A stretch of DNA of 64,000 bases from Antricoccus suffuscus. GTDB taxonomy: Bacteria > Actinomycetota > Actinomycetes > Mycobacteriales > Antricoccaceae. A program made the translations under genes and the position numbers. Shown in pieces: positions 1 through 12,910 of the stretch (positions within the stretch are counted from its first letter, which is position 1; every line of letters begins with the position of its first letter). Location of the stretch: assembly GCF_003003235.1 (NCBI RefSeq), contig NZ_PVUE01000003.1, positions 181,150-245,149 of the forward strand, read 5' to 3'. The notes under the pieces were generated by a model. The model was not told the origin of the DNA, made no database searches, and saw only the letters and a list, made by a program, of their open reading frames with translations.

Positions 1-744
1 CTGTTCGAACGCACCACCCGCAAGGTTGCGTTGACCACCGCCGGCCAGACCTTCCGGGCGGCCGCTTACCGCATCCTCGGGCAGATCGCGACGGCACGCG
101 AAGAACTGACCGACCTCCACGATCTCTCGGCCGGAACGCTCGCGGTGGGGACGGTGCAGACCTTGACCGTGGTCGACCTGCCGGCGGTGCTGGCGCAGTT
201 CAACCAGCGTTACTCCCACATCCGGATCGCATTGCACGAGGCGACCACCGCAGAGCTCGTGCGTTCGGTCCAGGCAGCCGAACTCGATGTCGCGTACGTC
301 GCACTCGATGCCAGTCCGCTCCCGCGAGACCTCACCCTCCTTCGGGGATATGAGGAGGATCTCGCGGTCGTCACGGCGCATGATCATCCGCTGGCGACCC
401 GTGCCGAGACCACGCTTGCCGAACTGGCCGACTACACATTTGTGGAATTCAGTGCCGGCACCGGTCTGCAGACCGTCATCGAGACGCTGTGTGCCGAAGC
501 CGGATTGCACCGGCGTATAGGATTTCGGGCGACCCAGATGGGACAGGTCCTTGCGCTGGTCGGACACGGACTCGGCATTAGCATCGTGCCGAGTTCCATT
601 GCCGAAGGTAGTGGTCTCGCGACTGTGCCCATCGGTCCCGCATCGCCTTCGCGAAAGCTAGCCCTCGTTTCGCGCAGTGCCCGCCCGAGCAACCCGGCCG
701 CACGCGCATTCTTGGAGCTATTAGCGCCCCGAATCTCATCGTAG
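1..744 (+). CDS. LysR-family transcriptional regulator, C-terminal effector-binding domain (5'-truncated by window edge)
   Basis: Reading frame is open from nt 1 and in frame with ORF 31..744. Translation has LysR-type periplasmic-binding-fold features (LAVGTVQTL, FVEFSAGTGL, LALVSRS). The HTH N-terminus lies upstream of the window. Confidence 0.75.
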   Translation: MFERTTRKVALTTAGQTFRAAAYRILGQIATAREELTDLHDLSAGTLAVGTVQTLTVVDLPAVLAQFNQRYSHIRIALHEATTAELVRSVQAAELDVAYVALDASPLPRDLTLLRGYEEDLAVVTAHDHPLATRAETTLAELADYTFVEFSAGTGLQTVIETLCAEAGLHRRIGFRATQMGQVLALVGHGLGISIVPSSIAEGSGLATVPIGPASPSRKLALVSRSARPSNPAARAFLELLAPRISS

Positions 745-787
745 GAACGACGCGCCGCCCGCGGCGATTATGCCTCTGGTGACGGGT

Positions 788-1426
788 TTAAGTGACGGAT
801 GGTCGAACATTAGTGACGGATGGTCGAGCATGAGGCGCCTCACGGACCGGCGCGACAAGGCGATACCAGCGTGACTGACTCAGCCGATCGACGACCAGTA
901 CGGCGCGGCGCCGGAGAAGTGCATAAATCGCCAAGGTAATCAGCGCGCCGGCGACCAGTCCCACGAGGACGTCCGAGGGGTAGTGCACCCCGACGTACAC
1001 GCGCGAGAAGGCCAGCAGCAGCGACAGCAGTGTCGCGATGATGCCGAGCCGGCGGTCGATGAGCCAGAAGCCCGCGGCAAAGGCGCCGGCGATGATGGCG
1101 TGGTCGCTGGGCATGGAGTAGTCCGGGTTGCACGGCAGAAGGGTGGTCATGTGGGGGAGCGCGTTGCAGGGGCGCACCCGACCGATCAGCGGGGAGAGGA
1201 CCTGCGCGTTGAGCCCAACGGCGACGAGGGTCGCGATCCCAGTGAGGACGGCTGCCGCGACGGCGGGCCGTCCAGTAGTACGCCGACGCGCCGACCACCA
1301 CGCGCCGACCAACATGACTGCCAGCAGCACAAGGCCGCCCCACAAGGCGTACGCCGCCATGAAGCCGTGCAGCCAGGTGGTGTTGTCCATGAAGTTGTGT
1401 ACGGCGCGGTAAATAGAAGTGTCCAT
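788..1426 (-). CDS. PAP2-family (type 2 phosphatidic acid phosphatase) membrane phosphatase
   Basis: Signature PAP2 motifs PSDHA and SRVYVGVHYPSDV in a protein with several predicted TM helices. ATG at 1426 lies 12 nt after the response-regulator stop. The C-terminus carries a duplicated heptapeptide (RPSVT..RPSVT) encoded by a 20-bp direct repeat at 791-831. Confidence 0.8.
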   Translation of the reverse strand: MDTSIYRAVHNFMDNTTWLHGFMAAYALWGGLVLLAVMLVGAWWSARRRTTGRPAVAAAVLTGIATLVAVGLNAQVLSPLIGRVRPCNALPHMTTLLPCNPDYSMPSDHAIIAGAFAAGFWLIDRRLGIIATLLSLLLAFSRVYVGVHYPSDVLVGLVAGALITLAIYALLRRRAVLVVDRLSQSRWYRLVAPVREAPHARPSVTNVRPSVT

Positions 1427-1438
1427 GAGGTCCGCCCG

Positions 1439-2131
1439 CTACGCGTGCGCGTTTTGGGGTTTGTCCGCGACCAGCCGATAACCCATTCCGCGCACGGTCT
1501 GCAGTGTCGATAGCTCGTACGGCACGTCGATCTTGCGGCGCAGATATCCGATGTAGACCTCGACCACGTTTTCCGCGCCGTCGTACGCCGGATCCCATAC
1601 GTTGGCGAGGATCTCGCTCTTCGAGACGATGGCACCCTTTTGCCGCATAAGGAAGTGCAGCAGGCCAAACTCCTTGGCGGTCAACGGAATTTCGTCGCCG
1701 TGGCGGGTGACCGAACGGCGCCCAGGGTTGAGGTTGAGCGACCCGATTGTCAATTCGACGGGGCGGGCGGGAGCGCCGCGCCGGATCAACGCGCGCAAAC
1801 GTGCGGTGAGGACCAGGAAGCTAAACGGTTTAGTCAGGTAGTCATCGGCGCCAAGGTCGAAAGCGTCCGTCTGGTCATACTCGCCGTCTTTTGCCGTGAG
1901 CATCATGATCGGTGTCCAGATCTTGCGTTTGCGAATCTCGCGCAGCACGTTGTAGCCGTTGAGCCCGGGCAGCATGATGTCGATGACGATGACGTCGAAG
2001 CGCTCCTCGGTCGCGGCCCAGAGCCCGTCGTTGCCGTTGTGCTCGACGCGTACGACGAACCCCTCGTTGACCAGTCCGCGCCGGATGGTCTCGGCGAGTG
2101 CTTGTTCGTCTTCGATAATCAGCACCCGCAT
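1439..2131 (-). CDS. OmpR/PhoB-family response regulator
   Basis: Receiver domain (MRVLIIEDE ... DVIVIDIMLPGLNG ... MLTAKD) plus winged-helix C-terminus (LTAKEFGLLHFLM ... GMGYRL). ATG at 2131 is preceded by GGAGGAG 6 nt upstream. The 30-aa upstream in-frame extension in the ORF track shows no homology. Confidence 0.85.
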   Translation of the reverse strand: MRVLIIEDEQALAETIRRGLVNEGFVVRVEHNGNDGLWAATEERFDVIVIDIMLPGLNGYNVLREIRKRKIWTPIMMLTAKDGEYDQTDAFDLGADDYLTKPFSFLVLTARLRALIRRGAPARPVELTIGSLNLNPGRRSVTRHGDEIPLTAKEFGLLHFLMRQKGAIVSKSEILANVWDPAYDGAENVVEVYIGYLRRKIDVPYELSTLQTVRGMGYRLVADKPQNAHA

Positions 2132-2217
2132 GCCTAGCTCCTCCGCCGAGTTCGATTCTTGACGGTTCTGATCGTGCCACCGCTGCCTGAGGAAATCCTG
2201 AGAACGTCTCAAAGTGG

Positions 2218-3699
2218 TCATGGTGCGTCGTCTACGGGCAAGGTGAATCGGAACCGGCAGTAGCCTTGGGGCGATTCGGTCGCGACGATCGTGCCGCCAT
2301 GCGCGGTGACGAACTCTGCGGCGATCGCCAGCCCGAGTCCGCTGCTGCCGCTGTCGCGTGAGCGGCTGTCGTCCAGGCGGACGAAACGTTCGAAGATGCG
2401 TGTGCGGTCGGCCCGGGGCACGGCCGGGCCGTCGTTGTCCACGTCCACGGTCGCAATGCCGCCCTCGACCCGGCAGCTGACCCAGATCCGTGAGTTTGCG
2501 TGCCGTTCGGCGTTGTCCAGCAGATTGCGTAGCACCTGCGCGATCCGGGCCCCGTCACATACGACTCGGATTGGTTCGGCGCGTACGACGAACTGTTTGC
2601 TGGATCCGCCGCCGACGGCTCGGGCTTCGTTCTCGATGAGGTCGTCGAGGTCCTGTTCGGTACGCCGCAGGTGCACCTGATGGTCGTCGGCCTTGGCCAG
2701 CGTCAGCAGGTCATCGACCAGGCTCTTCATCCGGCCGGTCTGGCCGAGTAGCACCGGCTGCATGTCGCGCCACGTGTCGCCGGTCTCGTCCGCGATGGCG
2801 ATCTCGAGGGTGGCGTTGAGGGTGGCCAGCGGGCTGCGCAGCTCGTGGCTCGCGTCCGATGCGAAGCGCCGCTGCGCCGCATCGGACTCCTCAAGCCGAG
2901 TCAGCATCGCGTTCATGGTGGTGGCGAGCCGGGCGATCTCATCGGCCGTCGGCGGTACGTCGATACGTTGGCTGAGCCGGGAGCGGCGTACTCCGTCGAC
3001 CTGTTCGCGGATGCGCTCGACCTCGTGCAGCGCCCGTCCGACCAGCAGCCAGGTCAGCCAACCGACCACCAACAGCAACACCGGAATGCCGACCAGTAGG
3101 TAGAGCCCGACGGTGCGCACGGACTGCTTCTGTACGTCGATCTCGGCCATCACGTTGACGGCGTACGCCTTGCCGCCGCTGAGGAATCCGACCGATGTGA
3201 CGACCGGGTCATCCTCGTGAGCGTTGATGTGTGGCGACCCTGCGGGATAGCTGACCGTCTGCCCTGGGGCGGCGGGTGTTTTGACGAGCGAGTGCTCCAG
3301 GTACTCCTCGTGCGCGGCGGCGACGACCTTGTCCTTGGAGGTGACGATCTGCACCTCTTGGCCCTTGTGCGTGAGGTCCTTGGCAAGTGTCGGTACGCCG
3401 GGAACCGTTTCCCCGGCGTACTTGCCGGCGAGGTCTCGTGCGGTAGACACGGTCTGGCTGGTGGCGTCGTTGACCAGAGCCTGCTGGAGCAGGACCAGGA
3501 GCAGAGCGCCGCCGGCAACGAGCGCGAGGAGCACCACCGAGGTGGCGGCCAGGGTAGCTCGGATGCGCACGCCCCATCGTCGGTGGTTGGAGGTGCGGTG
3601 CGGCGAAAGGGGCGCAACCACGGTCTCGTTAGGCTCCGGCGCTACCGTCGCGGGACGGTGCAATAGGCGCCGGAGTCGGTACGGGCGCGGGCGTGTCAA
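2218..3699 (-). CDS. Sensor histidine kinase (two TM helices, periplasmic sensor domain, HAMP, HisKA, HATPase_c)
   Basis: H-box SHELRSPLATL, N-box LLDNAERHA, G-boxes DNDGPAVP and GSSGLGLAIA. Two hydrophobic segments flank a ~130-aa extracytoplasmic domain. Start uncertain (TTG at 3699 or GTG at 3570). Confidence 0.8.
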   Translation of the reverse strand: MTRPRPYRLRRLLHRPATVAPEPNETVVAPLSPHRTSNHRRWGVRIRATLAATSVVLLALVAGGALLLVLLQQALVNDATSQTVSTARDLAGKYAGETVPGVPTLAKDLTHKGQEVQIVTSKDKVVAAAHEEYLEHSLVKTPAAPGQTVSYPAGSPHINAHEDDPVVTSVGFLSGGKAYAVNVMAEIDVQKQSVRTVGLYLLVGIPVLLLVVGWLTWLLVGRALHEVERIREQVDGVRRSRLSQRIDVPPTADEIARLATTMNAMLTRLEESDAAQRRFASDASHELRSPLATLNATLEIAIADETGDTWRDMQPVLLGQTGRMKSLVDDLLTLAKADDHQVHLRRTEQDLDDLIENEARAVGGGSSKQFVVRAEPIRVVCDGARIAQVLRNLLDNAERHANSRIWVSCRVEGGIATVDVDNDGPAVPRADRTRIFERFVRLDDSRSRDSGSSGLGLAIAAEFVTAHGGTIVATESPQGYCRFRFTLPVDDAP

Positions 3700-3831
3700 T
3701 GGTCTGAGCCGTGCGCGCAGGGTACTTATCCGTGTGAGACGGGGGTAGGGGGGAGCTCATACCCAAATAGTGGGTCGTCGGCCTGAGCACGACCTGAGCC
3801 CAGATCGCCTTTGCCGCAGCTGAACACGCTG

Positions 3832-6800
3832 TTATCCCGGTGTGCTACTACCCAATGTGAGGCGACCTGGGGTGGGACGACCCAGCGTGGGACGACCTGG
3901 TGTGAGACGACCCAGTGTGGGACGGACAAACGGGAAGGTGAGGATGGACCGGATTGGCGATCCGGTCAGCAGCATGACGATCCGGTCGACGCCGAGCCCG
4001 AGACCACCGGTCGGTGGCATCCCGGTCTCGATCGCAGTCAGAAATGCCTCGTCGATCTCCATCGCTTCGGGGTCTCCCGCAGCCGCGCGCAACGACTGTT
4101 CGGTCAGCCGTGCTCGCTGGTCGATCGGATCGGTCAGCTCGGAGTACGCAGTGCCCAGTTCCATCCCGAATGCCACCAGGTCCCAGCGCTCAGCCAGTCG
4201 CGGGTCGACGCGATGCGGCCTGGTCAACGGCGAGGTCTCGACCGGGAAGTCGGTGTAGAACGTCGGGGACACAGTGGTCGGCTCGACGCGCCGCTCGTAG
4301 ATCTCGGACACCACTTCACCGGCGCTGGCCCCGTCCGGTACGGCGATGCCCAGGTCGGCGGCGATGCCGGCCACTTCTGCGCGCGGCGTATCAGGGGTAA
4401 TCGAGCGCCCGCAAGCGCGAGAAACGGCGTCGTGCACCGTGACCACCGGCCACTGCCCGGACAGGTCGACGCGCACTTGCTCGCCGGTCTGTGGGTCGGG
4501 ACGGAGTGCCACCGGCGCGCCGTGTACGGCGATGGCGGCCTGCTGGATCAGCTCGGTCGCGAGCTCGCGCATACGGTCGTAGTCGCCGTATGGCAAATAC
4601 GCCTCGAGCGAGGTGAATTCGGGATTGTGGGTCGCGTCGACACCTTCGTTGCGGAAGTTGCGGCCGAGCTCGAAAATCGGTCCCATCCCGCCCACGATGA
4701 GCCGCTTCAAGTAAAGCTCGGGCGCGATGCGCAGCGACAGGTCGATGCCGTACGCGTTGATGTGTGTGCGGAACGGTCGCGCCGACGCGCCACCGTGGAC
4801 CGTCTGCAGGATCGGTGTCTCGACCTCGGCGTACCCCTCGGCGCCAAGGGTGTCGCGCAGCGAGCGTACGGCGCGGCTGCGGTCGGCGAGCAGCGTCCGT
4901 GCCTCCGGGTTGACGATGAGGTCGAGCGATCTCTGACGGGCCCGGCGCTCGGGATCGGTGAGCCCGCTGTGCGCCGGGGGCAGCGGGTGTAACGACTTCG
5001 CGGCCATCGCCCAATCCCGCACGAGCAGAGACCGCTCGCCGGTGCGGCTGTGCGCCATGATCCCGGTGGCGCTTACCAGGTCCCCGCGGTTGACCGTCTG
5101 CGACCACAGTCTCAACAGCGGCCGACCAAGGTCGGCGTCGTTGAGGAGCAACTGCAATAGGGCGCCACCCTCGGTGAGGTGCGCGAAGATCACGCCGCCG
5201 TGGTTGCGGATGCTCAGGACCCGCCCGGTCACACTCAGCTCCGTGCCGATCGGTGCATCGACAAGAGTGTCGAGGGATCCGGTGCGGGGCACGGCCACAG
5301 GGTACGGCGGCATGTGCGCGGCGCGCAGTTCCGCGAGGTCGTCGCGGCGCATCAAATGCTGTTGCGCCAGTCGACGTACCGGGATCGTCGCGGCTAGCGC
5401 GGCCGACTCTTGGGCGGCGACCGTCTCGCCGAACTGCGCGCTGGAAATCTTCTGAGTCAGCGCTCGGCTGGTGCTGGGATCGGGCAGAAACCCCTCCGCG
5501 GCGCCCGCCGCGATCATCACCCTCGGCAGGGACAGCGGCGAGTCGACACAGAGGTAGCGGGGCACCCATTCGGGTCGATACTTCGCGTTGGACCGGTAGA
5601 GCGTCTCGAGCTGGAAGAACCGCGAGAATACCGAGAGCACGCTGTTGTTGAGACGGGTGATGGGCCCGGCGTCGAACTCGTCGGCATCTGCGAACACTCG
5701 GCGGAACATCGCGAAGTTCAGCGAGATCCGTCGTACGCCGTGCGCCGCGGCATCGCCGATCAAGCTCGTCACCATCAACTCGACGAGCCCGTTGGGGCCG
5801 TTCTTGGATCGGCGCATCAGGTCGAGCGAAACCCCGGTGCGGCCCCACGGCACGAACGACAACAGGCCCGCGGGACGGCCATCGGGCGCAGCAGCGACGA
5901 CCATCAGGCACGAGCCGTCGGCCGGGTCGCCGAGCCGGGACAGCGCCATCGAGAAGCCACGCTCGGGTGCGTCACCGCGCCACTGTTCGGCGAGCTCGGC
6001 CAGGTGCCGCAGCTCGTCAGGATCGATGTCGCGGTGCCGGCGGATCGACACGGCGTACCCCTCGCGAGTCAGCCTGCTCACCGCCTGCCGCACCCCCTTC
6101 ATGCCGGGGCCGGTGAGCCGGAAGGTGTCGACGTTGATGATCGCCTCGTCGCCGAGGGGTATCGCGCGCAGGCCGGCGGCGACGTACGCCTCGGCCGCGC
6201 CCTTGCTCGCCGAGAGCACCGCCGGTACCCAGCCGTAGGTGCGCGCCTCGCTCAGCCATGCAGCGATCGCGCTCGGCCACGCCTCGGTCGGCCCGATCGG
6301 GTCCGCCGAGGCGATCGATACGGAGGCCAGCACGCGGTAGGTCACCGATGCCCTGCCGTCTGGAGAGAAGACGACTGCTTTGTCGCGACGGGTAGCAAAG
6401 TAGCCGAGCGAGTCGTCGTGGCCAGTCAGCAACTGGCGACGTACGCGCAGCTCAGCGTCCTCGTCGATGATCCGCAGGGTGCGCGGCGACCGCAGGAACA
6501 CGACCGCTGCCACCAGCATCACGGCGGCCGCAATCCACCCGATAACGTCGGCTACCCACTCCGGGCCGTGAGTGCTCTGTAGAAACAGCCCCTCCTCGTT
6601 GATGCCGAACACCACCCGCAAGCCGAACACGAGATGCTGGCCGAGACTGCCGGGGGACTTCAGGCTCAGAAGTACGGCCAGCAACACGCATGCCGAGAGA
6701 CCGACCGCCAGGATGAGGGCCGTGATCCGCCGGGAACCAGGAGAACGGCGCGCCTGAAATGCCAGCCGGGACCGCCACAGCACCACAATGATGACGATCC

Positions 6801-7248
6801 CGAATATGCCGCTGAACGTCGCGAGGACCTGGCTGCTTCCGCTGCCGAACAGCTGCCCGACGCGCGGTGTCCAGCTGGGCAGTGGCCTGCCGGCGACGTA
6901 CCCAATCCAGATCAGGATCGCACGCAGTACGCCGAGTGCCTGAAAAATCAGCACGATCCAGAGCGCAAACCGTTTGTGGCGAAGGAGCGCCCCCGCGAGC
7001 ACGAAGAGCAGAAGCCCCACAAAGAAGCTCTCGGACATCGGCACGTTGAACAGGCCGAAGAACCGTTCCGGCCAGAAATGTTGGACAAACCCCGCGTGGT
7101 GATGCCAGTAGGTCAGTGACACCAGCGCCGCGAAGGAGTAGACGACCGCGACCCATCGTGCGCACCGATTGGCGGCACTGCTGCCGACTGCCGCAAGGAC
7201 CGGGCGTTGCTGGGTCACATCGAGAAGGTATCCCGTTGCGATGGTCAC
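3832..7248 (-). CDS. lysX: LysX-type bifunctional lysylphosphatidylglycerol synthase (MprF-like membrane and DUF2156 domains) fused to class II lysyl-tRNA synthetase
   Basis: N-terminal polytopic membrane region, then a DUF2156-like aminoacyl-PG synthase domain (GLLSFVPWGRTGVSLDLMRR). C-terminal LysRS has an anticodon-binding OB fold and class II motifs (FRNEGVDATHNPEFTSLEAY, GGLGLGVDRIVMLLTG). Architecture matches M. tuberculosis LysX. GTG start at 7248. Confidence 0.85.
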   Translation of the reverse strand: MTIATGYLLDVTQQRPVLAAVGSSAANRCARWVAVVYSFAALVSLTYWHHHAGFVQHFWPERFFGLFNVPMSESFFVGLLLFVLAGALLRHKRFALWIVLIFQALGVLRAILIWIGYVAGRPLPSWTPRVGQLFGSGSSQVLATFSGIFGIVIIVVLWRSRLAFQARRSPGSRRITALILAVGLSACVLLAVLLSLKSPGSLGQHLVFGLRVVFGINEEGLFLQSTHGPEWVADVIGWIAAAVMLVAAVVFLRSPRTLRIIDEDAELRVRRQLLTGHDDSLGYFATRRDKAVVFSPDGRASVTYRVLASVSIASADPIGPTEAWPSAIAAWLSEARTYGWVPAVLSASKGAAEAYVAAGLRAIPLGDEAIINVDTFRLTGPGMKGVRQAVSRLTREGYAVSIRRHRDIDPDELRHLAELAEQWRGDAPERGFSMALSRLGDPADGSCLMVVAAAPDGRPAGLLSFVPWGRTGVSLDLMRRSKNGPNGLVELMVTSLIGDAAAHGVRRISLNFAMFRRVFADADEFDAGPITRLNNSVLSVFSRFFQLETLYRSNAKYRPEWVPRYLCVDSPLSLPRVMIAAGAAEGFLPDPSTSRALTQKISSAQFGETVAAQESAALAATIPVRRLAQQHLMRRDDLAELRAAHMPPYPVAVPRTGSLDTLVDAPIGTELSVTGRVLSIRNHGGVIFAHLTEGGALLQLLLNDADLGRPLLRLWSQTVNRGDLVSATGIMAHSRTGERSLLVRDWAMAAKSLHPLPPAHSGLTDPERRARQRSLDLIVNPEARTLLADRSRAVRSLRDTLGAEGYAEVETPILQTVHGGASARPFRTHINAYGIDLSLRIAPELYLKRLIVGGMGPIFELGRNFRNEGVDATHNPEFTSLEAYLPYGDYDRMRELATELIQQAAIAVHGAPVALRPDPQTGEQVRVDLSGQWPVVTVHDAVSRACGRSITPDTPRAEVAGIAADLGIAVPDGASAGEVVSEIYERRVEPTTVSPTFYTDFPVETSPLTRPHRVDPRLAERWDLVAFGMELGTAYSELTDPIDQRARLTEQSLRAAAGDPEAMEIDEAFLTAIETGMPPTGGLGLGVDRIVMLLTGSPIRSILTFPFVRPTLGRLTPGRPTLGRPTPGRLTLGSSTPG
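3849..3923. repeat. Five tandem 15-bp repeats (GACCYRGYGTGRGAC) encoding a pentapeptide repeat G-R-(P/L)-T-(L/P) at the extreme C-terminus of LysX
   Basis: Direct reading of the sequence: units at 3864-3878, 3879-3893, 3894-3908 and 3909-3923, plus a degenerate unit at 3849-3863. Confidence 0.7.
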
Positions 7249-7390
7249 GGTCTATATTTGCGCACTAGTTTCTCAGGTAACGCTCAGTTGCCTGCCGACC
7301 GGCATGCGCCACCGCGCTATCAGCTACCCACCGTCGGCCCATCATTTGCGCCTCGCGTCTCCGACCACGGGTTGCCATTAGGATTGCGCC

Positions 7391-7972
7391 GTGGCTGAAC
7401 AGATGTACCTCTTCGAGGCGGACGGCGCCGAACCGGCCGTCGACGATCTCGACGGTCTGCTGTTCGGTCCGGGACACGTCGTCAACCGGTCCGGTACGGC
7501 GCGGGTCTCGGTACTCACCGCGGACGCCTGGCGGGCCGAGGCGCTGGTCACCGCATTCGGCGTACGCGGACTCGGTGGTGAGTACAACGTCAGCCGCGAC
7601 GTCGAGCGTGGCCTGCAGTTCGTCGCGCGAACCGACTTCACCGACGAACTCGCGCCGCTCGCACGCCGATGGTCGCCGGGCGCGGTTCGTAAGAGTTCGC
7701 CGGTCAAGATGACCCCCGCGGCTCTTCGGATCTGGGTGATCGCGGCCGGGCGACCGACCGACTCCGGCTACTTGCTGCCCCTTGCCGCGTCGGAGGAAGT
7801 GCGCTGGTCGGTCTCCGGATCCGCGCTTGCCGGCCTCGGCGTACCTGGAGCGCTGATCGGGGTACGAAGCGGTGAACCGGCGTACCGGATTAGCTCGCAT
7901 AAGCGGCTCTCTCGTCTTGCGGTGCTTGTCGGTGAGCCACCGCCGGACGCTCCGGTGTCCGACTGGCCCTGA
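7391..7972 (+). CDS. Conserved hypothetical protein (actinobacterial, typically found upstream of topA)
   Basis: Protein-like composition, unlike the Arg-rich antisense ORF 7265..7900. Size and position upstream of topA resemble the conserved hypothetical found there in mycobacteria. No recognisable domain. Confidence 0.55.
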   Translation: MAEQMYLFEADGAEPAVDDLDGLLFGPGHVVNRSGTARVSVLTADAWRAEALVTAFGVRGLGGEYNVSRDVERGLQFVARTDFTDELAPLARRWSPGAVRKSSPVKMTPAALRIWVIAAGRPTDSGYLLPLAASEEVRWSVSGSALAGLGVPGALIGVRSGEPAYRISSHKRLSRLAVLVGEPPPDAPVSDWP

Positions 7973-8196
7973 GCGTCGCGGGTCGTCAGAAAGGTCCTGC
8001 GCATCAGTCGCCGACGGGTGCTGGTCGCGTCACGTTTTTATCAACCGTGGCGGGTGGCGAGCGGTGGTGCGAGGCCCCGGCACGTCGTGAAGTGGGGTAG
8101 TTTGCGACAGTTAGTAGTGCTGTCGCGCCGCGATCGACGTACCGAAGTCGGTTGAGCGTGACCGCGTGAGCACGTTTTAGACCACTGGGAGTACCG

Positions 8197-11124
8197 ATTT
8201 CCACCACCGATGCGACAGACGAAGAACTGCAGCTGGGTTCTGACTCAGACGCTGAAGCCGACGGCCTTGCCACTGACACGAGCGGGGACGGCACGACCGC
8301 ACGCCCGAAGAAGTCCCGCGCCAAGGCCCGCGTCGGTGGCAAGAAGCTGGTCATTGTCGAGTCGCCGAAAAAGGCTCAGATGATTGCTGGCTACCTCGGC
8401 GACGATTACATGGTCGAGGCGAGCTACGGGCACATCCGGGATCTGCCCCGCAAGGGCTCACCGATACCCGCGAAGTACAAGGGCGAATCGTGGGCGCGGT
8501 TGGGCGTCGACACGGACAACGGCTTCATGCCGGTGTACGTCGTCGGTCCGGACAAGAAACAGCAGGTCGCGAAGCTCAAGAGTCTTCTGGCGCAGGCCGA
8601 CGAGCTCTACCTCGCCACGGACGAGGACCGCGAAGGGGAGGCCATTGCCTGGCACCTCGCGGAGATCCTCAAGCCAACCGTCCCAGTGCACCGGATGGTG
8701 TTCCACGAGATCACCCCGGCCGCGATCCGGGACGCGATTGCCAACACCCGTGAGCTCAACAACGACATGGTCCAGGCGCAGGAAACTCGCCGGGTCCTAG
8801 ATCGGTTGTACGGCTACGAAGTTTCGCCGGTCCTGTGGCGCAAGGTCGGTCAGGGCCTATCGGCTGGCCGGGTGCAGTCGGTGGCGACGCGCATCATCGT
8901 CGAGCGCGAGCGCTTGCGGATGAAGTTCAAGGCGGCCGACTACTGGAGCGTCAGCGGCGACTTCGCGACAGGGCTTAAAAACGACGATCCGCTCGAGCCA
9001 GGCTCGGTCAAGGCGACCCTCATCAACCTCGACGATCGCCGGGTAGCCGTCGGCCGCGACTTCGACCCCGACACAGGCCTCGCCGCGGCCAGCGTCGTAC
9101 ACCTTGACGAGTCTGGCGCCCGCGGCCTCATCGCGCGCCTCGAGGGTGCGGCATTTGAGGTCACCCGGGTCGATGAGAAGCCATACCGGCGTCGTCCGGC
9201 GGCGCCGTTCATGACCTCCACGCTGCAGCAGGAGGCCGGACGCAAGATGCGCTGGTCGAGCTCGCAGACGATGCGTACGGCGCAGCGACTGTATGAAAAC
9301 GGCTTCATCACCTACATGCGTACCGACTCCACGACGCTGTCGGAAACCGCGTTGAGCGCGGCCCGCAACCAGGCTCGCGAACTGTACGGCGACAAATACG
9401 TCCCGGCCGAGCCCCGCCGTTACCAGCGCAAAGTCAAGAATGCGCAGGAGGCGCACGAGGCGATCCGTCCGGCTGGTGACCAGTTCCGCACACCGGGCCA
9501 GGTGGCGAATCAGATGTCCTCAGACGAGTTCAGGCTCTACGAGATGGTCTGGATGCGCACGATCGCCTCTCAGATGGCCGATGCCGTCGGGCAGACCGTC
9601 TCAATCCGGCTGACGGGCGACTCCAGCACAGGTGAAAAGGCGGAGTTCAGCGCGACCGGTACGACGATCACCTTCCCGGGTTTCCTTCGTGCCTACGTCG
9701 AGTCGAAGGACGAAGACGACAGCAGCGGCAGCGACGACGAAGAGCGCCGGATGCCGAGAGTCGCGAAAGGCCAAGCGCTCACCGCTACGGACCTCACCGC
9801 CAAGGGCCACACGACCCAGCCGCCGGCCCGCTACACCGAACCGAGTCTCGTCAGCGCGTTGGAGGAGCTCGGTATCGGCCGGCCCGCGACGTACGCCTCA
9901 ATCATCCAGACAATCCAAGATCGCGGATATGTATGGAAAAAGGGCTCCGCGCTGATTCCGTCGTTCACAGCGTTTGCCGTCGTCACGCTCCTCGAACGCT
10001 ATTTCACCCGACTTGTCGACTACGACTTCACCGCCCAGGTCGAAGGCGACCTCGACGACATCGCCGATGGCACCCGCAGTCGTGTTGACTGGTTGACGCG
10101 CTTCTACTTCGGCGGCACCGGTGGCGAAGAGGGCGGCATCGCCCAGCTTGGCGGGCTGAAGAAGCTCGTCGCGGACAACCTCGGCGAGATCGACGCCCGC
10201 GGGATCAACTCGATCCCGCTCGAGGGCGGCGTCGTCGTACGCGTCGGCCGCTATGGGCCTTATCTTCAGCAGGGTGCGGACGATGACAGTCGGCGCGCGT
10301 CGGTGCCGGACAATCTGGCGCCCGATGAGCTGACGCCTGAGAAGGTCGAGGAGTTGCTGTCCGCGCCGTCGGGCGACCGGCCGCTCGGCAACGATCCGGA
10401 GTCCGGACAGGAAATCATCGCGAAGTCCGGTCGCTACGGGCCGTATGTCACGACCGTTCCCCCGGAAGACTCCAAGGAGTCCCCGCGGACCGCGAGCCTG
10501 TTCAAGTCGATGGACCTCGACACGATCACGCTTGAGGATGCGCTGAAGCTGCTCCAGATCCCGCGCCTCGTCGGCGCCGATGCCGAAGGCAACGAGATCC
10601 AGGCACTCAATGGTCGCTACGGTCCCTACCTCAAGAAGGGGTCGGACTCGCGCTCGCTGGAGACCGAGGAACAGATCCTCAACATCACGCTTGAAGAGGC
10701 GCTCGCGATCCTCGCCCAGCCGAAGCAGCGCGGGCGGGCGGCCGCGAAACCGCCGCTGCGCGAGATGGGTGACGATCCGGTCAGCGGCGTGAAGATGGTG
10801 GTCAAGGACGGTCGTTTCGGCCCGTATGTCACCGACGGTGAATACAACGCGTCACTGCGCAAGGACGACACGGTCGAGGAGTTGACCGACGAACGCGCGG
10901 CCGAGCTACTCGCCGACCGGCGCGCACGCGGCCCGGCCAAGAAGGCCAAGCGCGCGGCGAAAAAGGCACCCGCGAAGAAGGCGCCGGCGAAGAAAGCCGC
11001 CAAGAAGGCGCCCGCGAAGGCGACTGCTAAGAAGACCACGGCAGCTAAGAAGACCACTGCGACCAAGAAGACCACGGCGAAGAAGACCACCGCAGCGAAG
11101 GCTCCCGCCAAGAAGTCGACCTAG
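8197..11124 (+). CDS. topA: DNA topoisomerase I with C-terminal lysine-rich repeat tail
   Basis: Toprim and Topo IA motifs (SYGHIRDL; catalytic-Tyr region GYITYMRTDS). C-terminal KKAPAKKA / KKTTA repeats are typical of actinobacterial TopA. The conserved N-terminal KKLVIVESPKKAQ is encoded upstream of the first ATG (8380), and there is no in-frame ATG/GTG/TTG back to the stop at 8167. A possible ATT start at 8197 sits 5 nt after GGGAG. Start coordinate uncertain. Confidence 0.85.
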   Translation: MSTTDATDEELQLGSDSDAEADGLATDTSGDGTTARPKKSRAKARVGGKKLVIVESPKKAQMIAGYLGDDYMVEASYGHIRDLPRKGSPIPAKYKGESWARLGVDTDNGFMPVYVVGPDKKQQVAKLKSLLAQADELYLATDEDREGEAIAWHLAEILKPTVPVHRMVFHEITPAAIRDAIANTRELNNDMVQAQETRRVLDRLYGYEVSPVLWRKVGQGLSAGRVQSVATRIIVERERLRMKFKAADYWSVSGDFATGLKNDDPLEPGSVKATLINLDDRRVAVGRDFDPDTGLAAASVVHLDESGARGLIARLEGAAFEVTRVDEKPYRRRPAAPFMTSTLQQEAGRKMRWSSSQTMRTAQRLYENGFITYMRTDSTTLSETALSAARNQARELYGDKYVPAEPRRYQRKVKNAQEAHEAIRPAGDQFRTPGQVANQMSSDEFRLYEMVWMRTIASQMADAVGQTVSIRLTGDSSTGEKAEFSATGTTITFPGFLRAYVESKDEDDSSGSDDEERRMPRVAKGQALTATDLTAKGHTTQPPARYTEPSLVSALEELGIGRPATYASIIQTIQDRGYVWKKGSALIPSFTAFAVVTLLERYFTRLVDYDFTAQVEGDLDDIADGTRSRVDWLTRFYFGGTGGEEGGIAQLGGLKKLVADNLGEIDARGINSIPLEGGVVVRVGRYGPYLQQGADDDSRRASVPDNLAPDELTPEKVEELLSAPSGDRPLGNDPESGQEIIAKSGRYGPYVTTVPPEDSKESPRTASLFKSMDLDTITLEDALKLLQIPRLVGADAEGNEIQALNGRYGPYLKKGSDSRSLETEEQILNITLEEALAILAQPKQRGRAAAKPPLREMGDDPVSGVKMVVKDGRFGPYVTDGEYNASLRKDDTVEELTDERAAELLADRRARGPAKKAKRAAKKAPAKKAPAKKAAKKAPAKATAKKTTAAKKTTATKKTTAKKTTAAKAPAKKST

Positions 11125-11127
11125 GTC

Positions 11128-11901
11128 GTGACCCCGGTCAATGTGGTCGCTCTCGGCGACAGCGTGTCGGAGGGCGTGGGTGACCCGGGCAAGGGTCGTC
11201 TTTTGGGCTGGATCCACCACCTGACAACCGATCCGGAAATCGCGACCGGTCTCAACCTGCCGACCAACTTTGCGCTGACCGGAGCGAAGATCTGCGACGT
11301 ACGCCGTGATCAGCTACCGCAGGCGCGCGCGATGGACGCGGATCTCTACATCTGCGTGATCGGCGTCAACGACGTGATGTCGAGCAGCTTCCGACGATCG
11401 CGGTTCGAGGCCGACTACGACTACGTCATCGACGCATTGATGAACGTAGCTCGCCGCGGTGTACTGACGATGACGCTGCACGACGTAGTTGGAGGCATCC
11501 CGCTTCCGGCAAGCAAGTTGGCCTGTCATCGCGACCGCGCCGAGCAGGCCAACCGCGTGATCGAACGCGTGTCGGCGAAGTACGGCGCGTGGCTGCTCGA
11601 GGCGCGAGACGCGCTGCCCATGCGGGGCAGTGGAATGCTCAGCATCGATCGGTTGCACCCCAACCGGCGTGGTCATCGCTACCTCGCGTCGATGGCCGCC
11701 GCCGAGCTGCACGCCCATGGTGTGGTGCCGCAACCGCCAAAGCTGACGGTCCCGCCGGCGCAGCCGTTGCGCGCTCGTAGTCTCGGTGCGGCCCGTCATG
11801 GGCTGTGGCTCGGGCGCCACCTGACCGCGCCGGTCGTCGATCACGTCTGGTTCAGGGCAGCGCGGCGTACCGACGGGGGATCGCTGACTCCGCTTTCTTA
11901 G
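11128..11901 (+). CDS. SGNH/GDSL-family hydrolase
   Basis: Block I motif VVALGDSVSEG. GTG start 3 nt after the topA stop. 3' end overlaps the convergent AlkZ-like gene by 50 bp. Confidence 0.7.
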   Translation: MTPVNVVALGDSVSEGVGDPGKGRLLGWIHHLTTDPEIATGLNLPTNFALTGAKICDVRRDQLPQARAMDADLYICVIGVNDVMSSSFRRSRFEADYDYVIDALMNVARRGVLTMTLHDVVGGIPLPASKLACHRDRAEQANRVIERVSAKYGAWLLEARDALPMRGSGMLSIDRLHPNRRGHRYLASMAAAELHAHGVVPQPPKLTVPPAQPLRARSLGAARHGLWLGRHLTAPVVDHVWFRAARRTDGGSLTPLS

Positions 11902-12910
11902 TGAAGGTGGTAAACGGCGTCGCGGAGACGGTTGCCTTCTTGCCGCTGCCGTGGCGTTTCCAGGTGCCCACCACTGCGCCGTTGTCGACGACGGACGCCA
12001 TGAACATGCCGTTGTTGCCAGGGACGAGGCGAGGGGCGAACTTGGTCGGTAGGGCCGCGCCGCGGTCTTGATAACCGAGCATGAACTCGTCGAACCCGGG
12101 TAGCAGGAAGACGCCCTTCGCGTTGGCGCTGTGCTCCGCGAGCCGGTCCGGTGTTTGCGGATCCATAAAGTATTCGACGCCGTCGACTTCGACGCGCTCG
12201 AGAAACGGTCGGGCGATCGCGAGTCCGGCCTTGACATCAACCATCAACAGCTTCGTCCACCACGCGAAGTCTTTGACCGTGGCCGGTCCGTGGCTGCGGA
12301 AGTAGCGCAGCGCCCACTCGCCGACCGCTTCGTCGCGATCGAGCCTCCGCGGTCGGCGTACCCATTCGTCGAGCATTACGAGCCGTTGCTCGCCTTTTTG
12401 GAAGGGGCCGAAGCACAGTACGCCGAGCTGCGCGAGCTGGAAGATCAGGCGATAACCTTGCCCGGGCGCGACGACTAGGCCGGCTTCATCCCAAAGGGCG
12501 AGGAGTTCGCTGCGGCGTAGTTGGCCGCCGCCTTCCAGAGCGGTGACGGCCACCTTGCGAGCCTGGTCGATCATCGCATCGTCGATGCCGAGCTCGGCAC
12601 GCCGGGGCGCGGTCGCGATGATCATCCGAGCCGCCGTGAGGCCAAGCATCCAGCCGAGATCTTCGCCTGCGACGAAGTGCAGCGTGCCGCGCATCGGCCA
12701 CGACTTCACGATCTCGCCGGCATCCATTGCCTCATGCACACCGGACCGATCTCGCCCGGCGGTGCGTAGGGCAACTGACGTGACGGCACCGGGATCTTGC
12801 GCCTGGACGGCGGTCATCCATTGCACCGCCTCGCCGGCCGATCCGAAGCCGGGTCCGGCGATGCGTTGCGCGGCTAGCCGAAGTCGCGCGAGGTCTCGTT
12901 GGCTCGTCAT
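11852..12910 (-). CDS. Winged-helix DNA glycosylase of the YcaQ/AlkZ (HTH_42) family
   Basis: Length (~352 aa) and overall pattern match HTH_42 / YcaQ-AlkZ proteins. The N-terminal region has Q-A-Q-D (AVQAQDPG), resembling the catalytic Q-phi-Q motif. Start is ATG 12910 or TTG 12943. Confidence 0.65.
   Translation of the reverse strand: MTSQRDLARLRLAAQRIAGPGFGSAGEAVQWMTAVQAQDPGAVTSVALRTAGRDRSGVHEAMDAGEIVKSWPMRGTLHFVAGEDLGWMLGLTAARMIIATAPRRAELGIDDAMIDQARKVAVTALEGGGQLRRSELLALWDEAGLVVAPGQGYRLIFQLAQLGVLCFGPFQKGEQRLVMLDEWVRRPRRLDRDEAVGEWALRYFRSHGPATVKDFAWWTKLLMVDVKAGLAIARPFLERVEVDGVEYFMDPQTPDRLAEHSANAKGVFLLPGFDEFMLGYQDRGAALPTKFAPRLVPGNNGMFMASVVDNGAVVGTWKRHGSGKKATVSATPFTTFTKKAESAIPRRYAALP

Follow-up and report, generated by a model that had tools for sequence, protein, structure and literature searches.

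In Staphylococcus aureus, the OmpR-family two-component system (TCS) GraRS (ApsRS)-VraFG raises the aminoacyl-lipid synthase gene mprF and dlt against cationic antimicrobials. In Salmonella and Escherichia coli, PhoPQ and PmrAB (BasRS) combine a periplasmic PDC-type sensor with an OmpR-family regulator that uses direct repeats at the -35 position and regulates its own genes. In these regulons positive charge is gained by Arn-type transfer of amino sugars from polyprenyl phosphate, and PAP2-type lipid phosphatases and a Mg2+ P-type ATPase also belong to them. Among Actinobacteria, a case of an MprF homologue induced by stress is provided by CseBC-sigmaE of Streptomyces coelicolor, where sco3397 (mprF) and the adjacent esterase gene sco3396 are fully sigmaE-dependent and vancomycin-induced (PMC6767563). 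We analyzed a stretch of 64,000 nt from Antricoccus suffuscus (contig NZ_PVUE01000003.1, positions 181,150 to 245,149), here called the window, in which lysX, a sensor histidine kinase gene, a response regulator gene and a PAP2-family phosphatase gene follow one another. An original prediction made from the sequence alone had read this cluster as a regulated membrane-charge-remodelling module. Our comparisons point to an autoregulated TCS that probably controls a local envelope regulon of three transcription units through a shared direct repeat. Literature searches found no TCS tied to lysX, a linkage that the original prediction did not know to be described for actinobacterial LysX.

The four open reading frames (ORFs) are co-directional on the minus strand, and their identities were borne out by Pfam and NCBIfam. 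lysX (3832-7248) encodes a bifunctional aminoacyl-lipid synthase and lysyl-tRNA synthetase of 1138 aa at the longest ORF. A single polypeptide carries tRNA-synt_2_TM (the transmembrane region), LPG_synthase_C, the tRNA_anti-codon OB fold and class II tRNA-synt_2, and residues 24-1111 match positions 16-1101 of the 1102 in NCBIfam equivalog NF002821 with 1414.2 bits (cut-off 742). The histidine kinase (2218-3621) has a first transmembrane helix, a PAS/PDC-like extracytoplasmic domain, a second transmembrane helix, and then the Pfam domains HAMP, HisKA, with the H-box SHELRSPL, and HATPase_c. The response regulator (1439-2131, 230 aa) belongs to the OmpR/PhoB family (PF00072 Response_reg, 95.6 bits; PF00486 Trans_reg_C, 84.6 bits). 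The PAP2-family membrane phosphatase (788-1426, 212 aa; PF01569, 70.9 bits, cut-off 27.2) lies 12 nt past the regulator stop codon, the gap originally given.

The shared site is a direct repeat, CTCAG-N6-CTCAG, in an 11-bp register. Box 1 (CTCAGGTAACGCTCAG, 7272-7287, plus strand) lies in the divergent region between lysX and a hypothetical gene at 7391-7972, box 2 (CTCAGGTCGTGCTCAG, 3783-3798, minus strand) lies upstream of a remnant ORF and the kinase gene, and box 3 (CTCAGGATTTCCTCAG, 2187-2202, minus strand) lies in the 86-nt spacer between kinase and regulator, 55 nt before the regulator ATG. The exact box occurs three times in the 64 kb where 0.06 are expected, and 0/100 shuffled sequences reached three. 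All three are at 5' regions of the cluster, and the other 55 kb of the window have none. Because the sole three boxes of the 64 kb all sit in promoter regions of the cluster, the clustering exceeds chance. No report of this box was found in the literature.

The spacing and distribution of the repeat were then compared across loci. Among the TCS loci, 27 matches have the two repeats 6 nt apart and none have them at spacings of 2-5 or 7-10 nt. The 81 loci fetched after the motif had been defined contain 21 boxes in 670 kb (31 per Mb), whereas the LysX-locus background contains 5 in 1.57 Mb (3.2 per Mb; P about 2e-14). The discovery loci reached 131 per Mb and the orthologue subset 76 per Mb, and the density comparisons with the LysX-locus background gave P about 1e-13 to 1e-16. 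The three last-fetched genomes all have a box at the predicted place. In two of them (L174 and L175) paired, oppositely oriented boxes occupy the divergent region between regulator and PAP2 genes, and in the third (L176) a single box lies between the DedA and kinase genes. Across loci the boxes, with the consensus ctCTCAGg-N3-tNCTCAG, fall nearly always between genes and point the same way as the gene that follows. What follows the box is, again and again, 11-13 nt, TAnnnT, 5-7 nt and ATG or GTG. In other Actinobacteria the box is usually 23-25 nt before the start codon. Such a layout is what would be expected of an activator site standing in place of a -35 element and driving leaderless mRNAs. 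The genes behind the boxes encode PAP2-MprF, DedA, LPG_synthase_TM, prsW-esterase-lysX, PMT_2, GT2-GtrA, acyltransferase_3, DUF347, ABC components, a P-type cation ATPase, and the kinases and regulators themselves. Box 3 is identical at 18/19 positions in the relatives L093/L094 (~87% nucleotide identity) while its flanks have diverged, and box 2 is likewise conserved in the ~87%-identical relative while its flanks diverge. Actinobacterial genomes are rich in G+C-rich short repeats, and the gene order varies between lineages, as would be expected if the clustering and the box were coincidental, or the repeat non-regulatory, and the four genes expressed independently. We regard this as highly improbable in view of the strict 11-bp register, the intergenic and co-oriented positions, the fixed distance to the start codon, and the persistence of the box in genera from Antricoccus to Arthrobacter, which was independently validated.

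The regulator is the natural candidate for binding the box. Its recognition helix, NVVEVYIGYLRRKID, was aligned with that of Mycobacterium tuberculosis PhoP, NVVESYVSYLRRKID. In the PhoP-DNA crystal structure, bases are contacted by Asn212, Val213, Glu215, Ser216, Tyr217 and Tyr220, and a tandem PhoP dimer occupies 7-bp direct repeats (TCACAGC) whose spacer is fixed at 4 bp (PMC4832192). 5/6 of the base-contacting residues are identical in the window regulator (helix alpha8 NVVEvYigY here, NVVEsYvsY in PhoP). The box is likewise built as 7+4, and 2/7 half-site positions are different (TCTCAGG here, TCACAGC in PhoP). The segment DVIVIDIMLPG aligns with the phospho-acceptor region of PhoP. In DNA-site architecture and recognition helix the system is closest to M. 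tuberculosis PhoP, and like PhoP it is tied to envelope lipids. These likenesses suggest that the phosphorylated regulator would bind as a tandem dimer to (T/C)CTCAG(G/C)-N4-NCTCAG(G/C) in the 11-bp register. The regulator is not a PhoP orthologue, because its match to PhoP is 154 bits while true orthologues across genera stay 60-74% identical. Regulon content differs as well, and the gene order is phoP-phoR in PhoPR but kinase first or convergent here. A PDB sequence search returned no close characterized relative for the regulator.

To determine how widely the cluster is conserved, it was approached from both ends. From the LysX side, a profile of the lipid-synthase half was run over one genome per species, which yielded 80 LysX loci, each with 10-kb flanks, spread over many actinobacterial genera. 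tblastn with the window kinase, regulator and PAP2 found a related TCS in three of these (L019, L029, which is weak, and L057) and a PAP2 of the window type in none. Downstream of lysX, TCS and PAP2 are both missing in the three nearest LysX relatives (54-63% identity) that lie on long contigs. The idea that LysX generally carries this neighbourhood was rejected on these 80 loci and three relatives. Viewed from the TCS, the association is conserved. In Arthrobacter (L089), the genes flanking a kinase 47% and a regulator 70% identical encode PAP2, an 866-aa MprF-type LPG synthase, DedA and another PAP2. The PAP2-MprF-DedA row is found again in Paenarthrobacter (L174), PAP2-DedA occurs in Paeniglutamicibacter (L175), and in a metagenome-assembled genome (MAG; L176) the TCS lies with DedA, a P-type cation ATPase and a cyclopropane-fatty-acid synthase. 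Locus L092 has a 62%-identical kinase followed by GT2-GtrA, a PMT_2 (ArnT-like) glycosyltransferase and DUF347, with a convergent regulator-PAP2 bicistron; there the PAP2 is 69% identical to the window PAP2 and begins 13 nt after the regulator gene, whose C-terminus is clearly orthologous. The lysX-TCS linkage itself is retained in the ~87%-identical relative L094.

A metagenome scan with a profile of the sensor half added 80 loci, which split into two groups. In the orthologue group kinase and regulator genes are mostly convergent and the regulators are 60-74% identical; the window regulator is 70-72% identical to the Arthrobacter-type orthologues. The second group is a different family with the regulator upstream of the kinase on the same strand and regulators ~50-58% identical. 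Neighbours in the orthologue group include PAP2 (L095, L097, L103); L095 also has DedA and an LPG_synthase_TM protein, and L125 has an MprF-like gene. In a census by Pfam family of the 119 genes lying no more than 6 kb from 24 orthologous TCS loci, PAP2 (8) and LPG_synthase_C (6, two from LysX-biased loci) came first, followed by GT2, Esterase, PMT_2, DUF347, VTT/DedA and Polysacc_deac_1. The control, 148 neighbours of the other TCS family, was headed by PepSY and luciferase-like families, and PAP2 and LPG_synthase_C were absent from its list. The expectation that the neighbourhood would be conserved thus fails from the LysX side and holds from the TCS side. The conserved entity is the TCS, the box and a variable set of envelope genes rather than the order lysX-kinase-regulator-PAP2. 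By its neighbours and boxes, the TCS family looks like a general actinobacterial regulon for envelope remodelling and lipid-carrier recycling.

Several side observations concern these neighbourhoods. A. suffuscus has an orphan paralogous kinase (P0006, 68-70% identical) with no regulator nearby (L001 1-11400; relative L002). A GT2-polysaccharide deacetylase-ABC-PMT_2-(284 aa)-LCP cluster, similar to Arn/Lgm systems for the transfer of amino sugars, runs divergently from it, and the same box lies upstream of the orphan kinase, the PMT_2 gene and the 284-aa gene. This suggests that two kinases feed one regulator in A. suffuscus. A PF00756 putative esterase adjoins LysX/MprF genes in four loci (L057 8644-10002, L088 541-1419, L089 6215-7522 and L133 7987-9150) and is a candidate aminoacyl-lipid hydrolase or partner enzyme. 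P-type cation ATPases (Cation_ATPase_N/C) lie behind a box in L133 (2013-4706) and beside the TCS in L176 (11242-13788), an arrangement reminiscent of PhoPQ control of mgtA. In an Amycolatopsis MAG (L019 17608-21688), a kinase-regulator pair with the kinase first and a 64%-identical regulator directly follows murT-gatD, the genes for peptidoglycan iso-glutamate amidation, on the same strand and 4 kb from lysX; no exact box was found there.

Control of lysX itself was considered separately. Between box 1 and lysX there are 12 nt, AAATAT (7254-7259, minus strand; -11 to -6), 5 nt and the GTG at 7248, so that the box is 23 nt from the start codon and AAATAT may be the -10 element of a leaderless lysX promoter. 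This spacing matches that of the co-oriented boxes, and the same box/-10/start spacing is found at ~20 other boxes. Elsewhere a co-oriented box lies 25 nt before a prsW-esterase-lysX operon divergent from an orthologous kinase gene (L133), and boxes stand ahead of PAP2-mprF in L089 and L174; these boxes support the membership of LysX/MprF in the regulon. Several points weigh against control of lysX or against the regulon as a whole. Box 1 is inverted with respect to lysX, unlike ~30 co-oriented boxes, and is co-oriented with the divergent gene at 7391-7972, which starts 104 nt away and may be its real target. The LysX side of the comparison makes the linkage rare, 77/80 loci being without such a TCS. 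The motif was first spotted by eye while intergenic regions of five loci were being compared. About half of the regulator orthologues (>=59% identity) with usable upstream sequence have no exact or 1-mismatch box before the regulator gene, and the 59% threshold was set after the data were seen. The window PAP2 is without the C1 lysine and scores far under the undecaprenyl-diphosphatase cut-offs. The model of the sensor domain has moderate confidence (predicted local distance difference test score 74.6).

On another reading, the TCS would control only itself and PAP2, and formerly GT2-GtrA, in response to lipid-carrier or bacitracin-type stress, with lysX merely adjacent and box 1 serving 7391-7972. 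No partners of the TCS family are as constant as PAP2 and DedA, and the best NCBIfam matches of the window PAP2 are undecaprenyl-diphosphatases, both in keeping with such an arrangement, as are the orientation of box 1 and the scarcity of this TCS at LysX loci. Against it, the box has the short distance and correctly placed AAATAT at lysX and no such geometry at the gene starting at 7391, the lysX-TCS linkage is kept in L094, and LysX/MprF genes follow co-oriented boxes in L133, L089 and L174. We consider an adjacent, uncontrolled lysX unlikely. Since CTCAG and CTGAG differ only at the central base, an inverted site keeps 8/10 core positions. Inverted box 1 could activate lysX while facing the other way, repress it by occluding its promoter, or serve the divergent gene instead. 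On balance lysX is probably under the control of the regulator, with a sign that may be positive or negative.

The gene divergent from lysX encodes a hypothetical protein of 193 aa (7391-7972, plus strand) and is a possible alternative or additional target of box 1. It has 22 homologues of ~190 aa (36-94% identity), is lineage-restricted and was assigned no Pfam family. Two of the homologues, P0241 and P0245 (87-94% identity), are encoded on contigs of 4-14 kb. An ORF of 211 aa abutting lysX (7265-7900, minus strand) was rejected as an antisense artefact on the basis of its Arg-rich translation, its G+C content at third codon positions, which is lower than that of 7391-7972, and the opposite-strand ORF with its 22 homologues. 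As this ORF is spurious and the real gene is 7391-7972, lysX owns a 142-nt divergent upstream region. Beyond the hypothetical gene lies topA (DNA topoisomerase I, 8380-11124, plus strand). At the other flank, the 3' part of a LysR-family regulator gene (31-744, plus strand) is convergent with PAP2.

The spacer between lysX and the kinase gene bears on whether the cluster is one transcription unit. The 132-nt gap first given for it is true only of the longest kinase ORF (2218-3699, from TTG 3699); with the start at GTG 3621 the gap is 210 nt. This start was chosen because of the N-terminal RRWGVR motif and nucleotide conservation with relatives. The motif, RRWGVR(K)RAT, is kept in kinase homologues and lies upstream of the start annotated by NCBI (3570), and conservation with two ~87-89%-identical metagenomic relatives starts at ...CCTAAC.A.ACCGTGGTTGCGCC. 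The 210 nt contain a predicted promoter and a 43-codon remnant ORF (3629-3760, minus strand; MSSPLPPSHTDKY...RDGSAGA), which begins 22 nt after box 2 and whose stop lies 7 nt before the kinase GTG. In L094 the last 79 LysX codons are followed by the box, a 428-codon gene for GT2-GtrA, a polyprenyl-phosphate glycosyltransferase, starting 23 nt on, the kinase gene, box 3 and the regulator start. The remnant ORF start aligns with the L094 GT2-GtrA start, and its last codons and stop align with the 3' end of GtrA in L093. The window thus retains the box, the promoter and start CCCACTAT(T/C)TG..GGT-ATGAGC and the final codons and stop (...DGSAGA), while the gene body is deleted. In L094 (~1480-1632) the GT2-GtrA frame leaves that of L093 after ...GWGITSLA and overruns the kinase start, probably through an assembly indel or frameshift in the metagenomic contig. 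The comparison with L094 and L093 leads to an ancestral cluster of lysX, GT2-GtrA-kinase and regulator-(PAP2), and to a kinase gene that would be transcribed from its own box-dependent promoter without dependence on read-through from lysX.

Co-transcription of the whole cluster was therefore not borne out. There appear to be at least three promoters, with boxes in both the lysX-kinase and the kinase-regulator spacers. The only junctions resembling translational coupling are regulator-PAP2 (12 nt) and remnant ORF-kinase (7 nt). A consensus scan of the junctions found no sigma-70-type promoter and no terminator. The scan is uninformative, because the promoters appear to be activator-dependent and to have no -35 element. 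No terminator-like structure was found after lysX, so some read-through is possible. The 86-nt gap between kinase and regulator stands as originally given: the regulator starts at ATG 2131 with GGAGGAG 6 nt upstream, and orthologues align from the same methionine. Extension of the regulator to its longest ORF (1439-2221), from an ATGA overlap at 2221, was rejected since the extension contains box 3, a strong Shine-Dalgarno sequence precedes ATG 2131, and the orthologues start with MRVL.

Both end genes of the cluster have short tandem expansions at their 3' ends. In lysX a 15-bp repeat of ~5 copies (also read as 30 bp x 2.1) at 3850-3924 encodes the C-terminal tail LGRLTPGRPTLGRPTPGRLTLGSSTPG; LysX of the ~87%-identical relative L094 ends FVRPTSG, without the tail. 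In PAP2 a 21-bp tandem duplication (791-831) encodes RPSVTNV-RPSVT. In a collection of 5.8 billion proteins the window LysX has no 100% match (best 61-63%), although the neighbouring kinase is matched at 100% by an A. suffuscus protein (P0001). The lysX gene may be absent from the public record or annotated there in another way, perhaps as a pseudogene.

The extracytoplasmic sensor domain of the kinase, about 115-130 aa between two transmembrane helices, is present as described. An AlphaFold2 model consists of a transmembrane helix, a long helix, a five-stranded alpha/beta domain and a second transmembrane helix. Among its Foldseek hits are extracellular PAS/PDC domains from WalK and KinD, with a TM-score by target of up to 0.58, indicating with moderate confidence a PAS/PDC-like fold. 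Invariant columns in the domain are Q, G, G, Y and V, with no conserved His, Met or Cys. This composition matters for the possibility that the TCS is a CopRS/CusRS-type heavy-metal sensing system to which the neighbouring genes are unrelated. The best NCBIfam matches of kinase and regulator are indeed heavy-metal families, with cztS_silS_copS (TIGR01386) matching at full length. Both scores are under the cut-offs (201.8 bits vs 292.55 for TIGR01386; 224 vs 279.2 for cztR_silR_copR, TIGR01387), genes for efflux of copper or silver, for multicopper oxidases or for HMA-domain proteins are absent from the 119 neighbours, and the sensor domain is without a conserved His, Met or Cys. The box is also unlike the palindromic CusR box. 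A heavy-metal TCS was rejected on the cut-offs and the neighbours, and metal sensing by this system is very improbable.

The two enzymes of the cluster were each credited by the original prediction with a change in membrane charge. For LysX the product was given as lysyl-phosphatidylglycerol (Lys-PG), and this may need correction. M. tuberculosis work names lysyl-PG as the LysX product (PMC2713425), and a 2023 study reports lysyl-diacylglycerol (Lys-DAG) in Corynebacterium pseudotuberculosis and in two mycobacteria, where resistance to cationic peptides and to aminoglycosides was strongly affected (PMC10580965); the literature disagrees. For PAP2, removal of head-group charge is not supported, and its recurrent partner in orthologous modules is DedA. 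The window PAP2 belongs to a divergent subfamily: motif C3, SRVYVGVHYPSD, is intact (SRX5HX3D), C2 is PSDH with the His kept, and C1 keeps RP with the Lys absent, where other TCS-linked PAP2s have all three motifs (KX6RP / PSGH / SRX5HX3D). Its NCBIfam scores are SepP (NF047884) 56 bits of 250, YbjG (NF008813) 51.5 of 229 and PgpB 25.2 of 261, which amount to family-level resemblance only. The nearest solved relatives, with weak E-values and none close, are the multifunctional LpxE and Bacillus subtilis PgpB. TCS-linked PAP2s fall into at least four distinct subfamilies, a spread that points to repeated recruitment.

DedA-PAP2 synteny is a published signature of undecaprenyl-diphosphate dephosphorylation and undecaprenyl phosphate flipping (10.1101/2022.02.03.479048) and served there to assign the flippase function, and PAP2 and DedA genes are adjacent, as in these DedA (UptA)-PAP2 (BcrC/PgpB) recycling pairs, in L089, L174, L175 and L095. 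The window differs in having no DedA and a divergent PAP2 under the SepP and YbjG cut-offs. GT2-GtrA/PMT_2 systems likewise consume polyprenyl phosphate. Recycling of polyprenyl diphosphate is favoured because PAP2 and DedA travel together and GT2-GtrA/PMT_2 use polyprenyl phosphate, making polyprenyl diphosphate a more likely PAP2 substrate than a charged head group. A published TCS control of DedA-PAP2 pairs was not found in the literature. Alternatively, PAP2 might feed LysX by producing DAG from phosphatidic acid, or PG from phosphatidylglycerol phosphate, so that one regulator would govern a metabolic pair. In Corynebacterium and mycobacteria the lipid that LysX uses is DAG (PMC10580965), PAP2 belongs to the phosphatidic-acid-phosphatase superfamily and lies directly upstream of MprF in L089 and L174, and LpxE and PgpB are multifunctional lipid phosphatases. 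Yet charged loops and the positive-inside rule place the PAP2 motifs on the outer face, while LysX works with cytoplasmic Lys-tRNA; PAP2 accompanies the TCS in L175, L097 and L103 where there is no aminoacyl-lipid synthase; and the co-occurrence with DedA favours a polyprenyl-diphosphate substrate. A metabolic pair is quite improbable.

How does the system compare with those described? Functionally the closest are GraRS-MprF, PhoPQ/PmrAB and Streptomyces CseBC-sigmaE, and it belongs to none of them on the features tested. The analogy with PhoPQ/PmrAB or GraRS-MprF in the original prediction is a reasonable one given the shared box and the recurring PAP2 and LPG_synthase_C neighbours. The logic of GraRS is as proposed here, but GraS senses within the membrane, has only a very short loop and depends on a BceAB-type ABC transporter, whereas the window kinase has a ~120-aa PAS/PDC-like external domain; the target is MprF rather than LysX, and the phylum differs. 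No ABC transporter was found in window positions 1-12000, as a GraRS/BceRS module would have, and an FtsX-type ABC adjoins the TCS only in L090 and L109. The PhoPQ/PmrAB regulon has its counterparts in the GT2(-GtrA)/deacetylase/PMT_2 clusters, PAP2 genes and P-type cation ATPases behind or beside the same box. The differences are NCBIfam scores far below cut-offs for PhoP, PhoQ-type, PmrA and PmrB, the absence of lipid A in Actinobacteria and another box sequence. CseBC-sigmaE works through an extracytoplasmic function sigma-factor promoter, not a regulator box, and the NCBIfam CseB score is 163 bits (cut-off 350); the esterase-LysX/MprF pairing seen in sco3396-sco3397 recurs in L057, L088, L089 and L133. 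MprAB is a further actinobacterial OmpR-family envelope-stress TCS. The M. tuberculosis MprA box consists of two 8-bp direct repeats with a 3-nt gap in an 11-bp register. Neither the window nor the census of 119 neighbours shows mprA-mprB-htrA/pepD synteny, and the C. glutamicum MprA motif TKTTAAGAAM is unlike the window box (PMC12113857). A search with anti-phage defence models found nothing relevant.

Taken together, the regulated envelope-remodelling module stands as a regulon, with a box at the lysX, kinase and regulator-PAP2 promoters, and falls as a single operon and as a means of charge removal by PAP2. In the mechanism we propose, kinase and regulator would form an autoregulated OmpR/PhoP-like TCS. 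The PAS/PDC-like domain would sense an envelope signal, and the system would amplify itself. The repeats would occupy the -35 position of promoters giving mostly leaderless or short-leader mRNAs, and the local regulon would consist of lysX, the GT2-GtrA remnant with the kinase gene, and the regulator gene with PAP2. In response, LysX would lysylate lipid (Lys-DAG and/or Lys-PG), and PAP2 would dephosphorylate an outer-face lipid, most likely polyprenyl diphosphate, which would thereby be recycled to polyprenyl phosphate, the carrier. Other lineages would use this TCS and box to drive PAP2-MprF-DedA, prsW-esterase-lysX, GT2-GtrA/PMT_2 and related genes.

More tentatively, with a likelihood somewhat short of even, this may be a widespread and as yet unnamed actinobacterial TCS that is the functional counterpart of PhoPQ/PmrAB/GraRS. 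It would have a PDC-type sensor, a PhoP-like helix and TCTCAGG-N4-NCTCAGG at the -35 position of leaderless promoters. It would coordinate LysX/MprF lysyl-lipid synthesis, polyprenyl-phosphate recycling by PAP2 and DedA, and amino-sugar decoration of the wall by GT2-GtrA/deacetylase/PMT_2, and the second, orphan kinase of A. suffuscus would feed the same regulator. LysX is a determinant of cationic-peptide and aminoglycoside resistance and of virulence in Corynebacterium and Mycobacterium, and its regulation is essentially undescribed. A defined operator, a regulator family and a short list of co-regulated genes (LysX/MprF, PAP2, DedA and Arn-like GT2/PMT_2) would turn that regulation into a testable question. 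They would also allow the regulon to be predicted cheaply in any actinobacterial genome, and they suggest in what physiological setting some PAP2 and DedA paralogues, so far poorly understood, may act.

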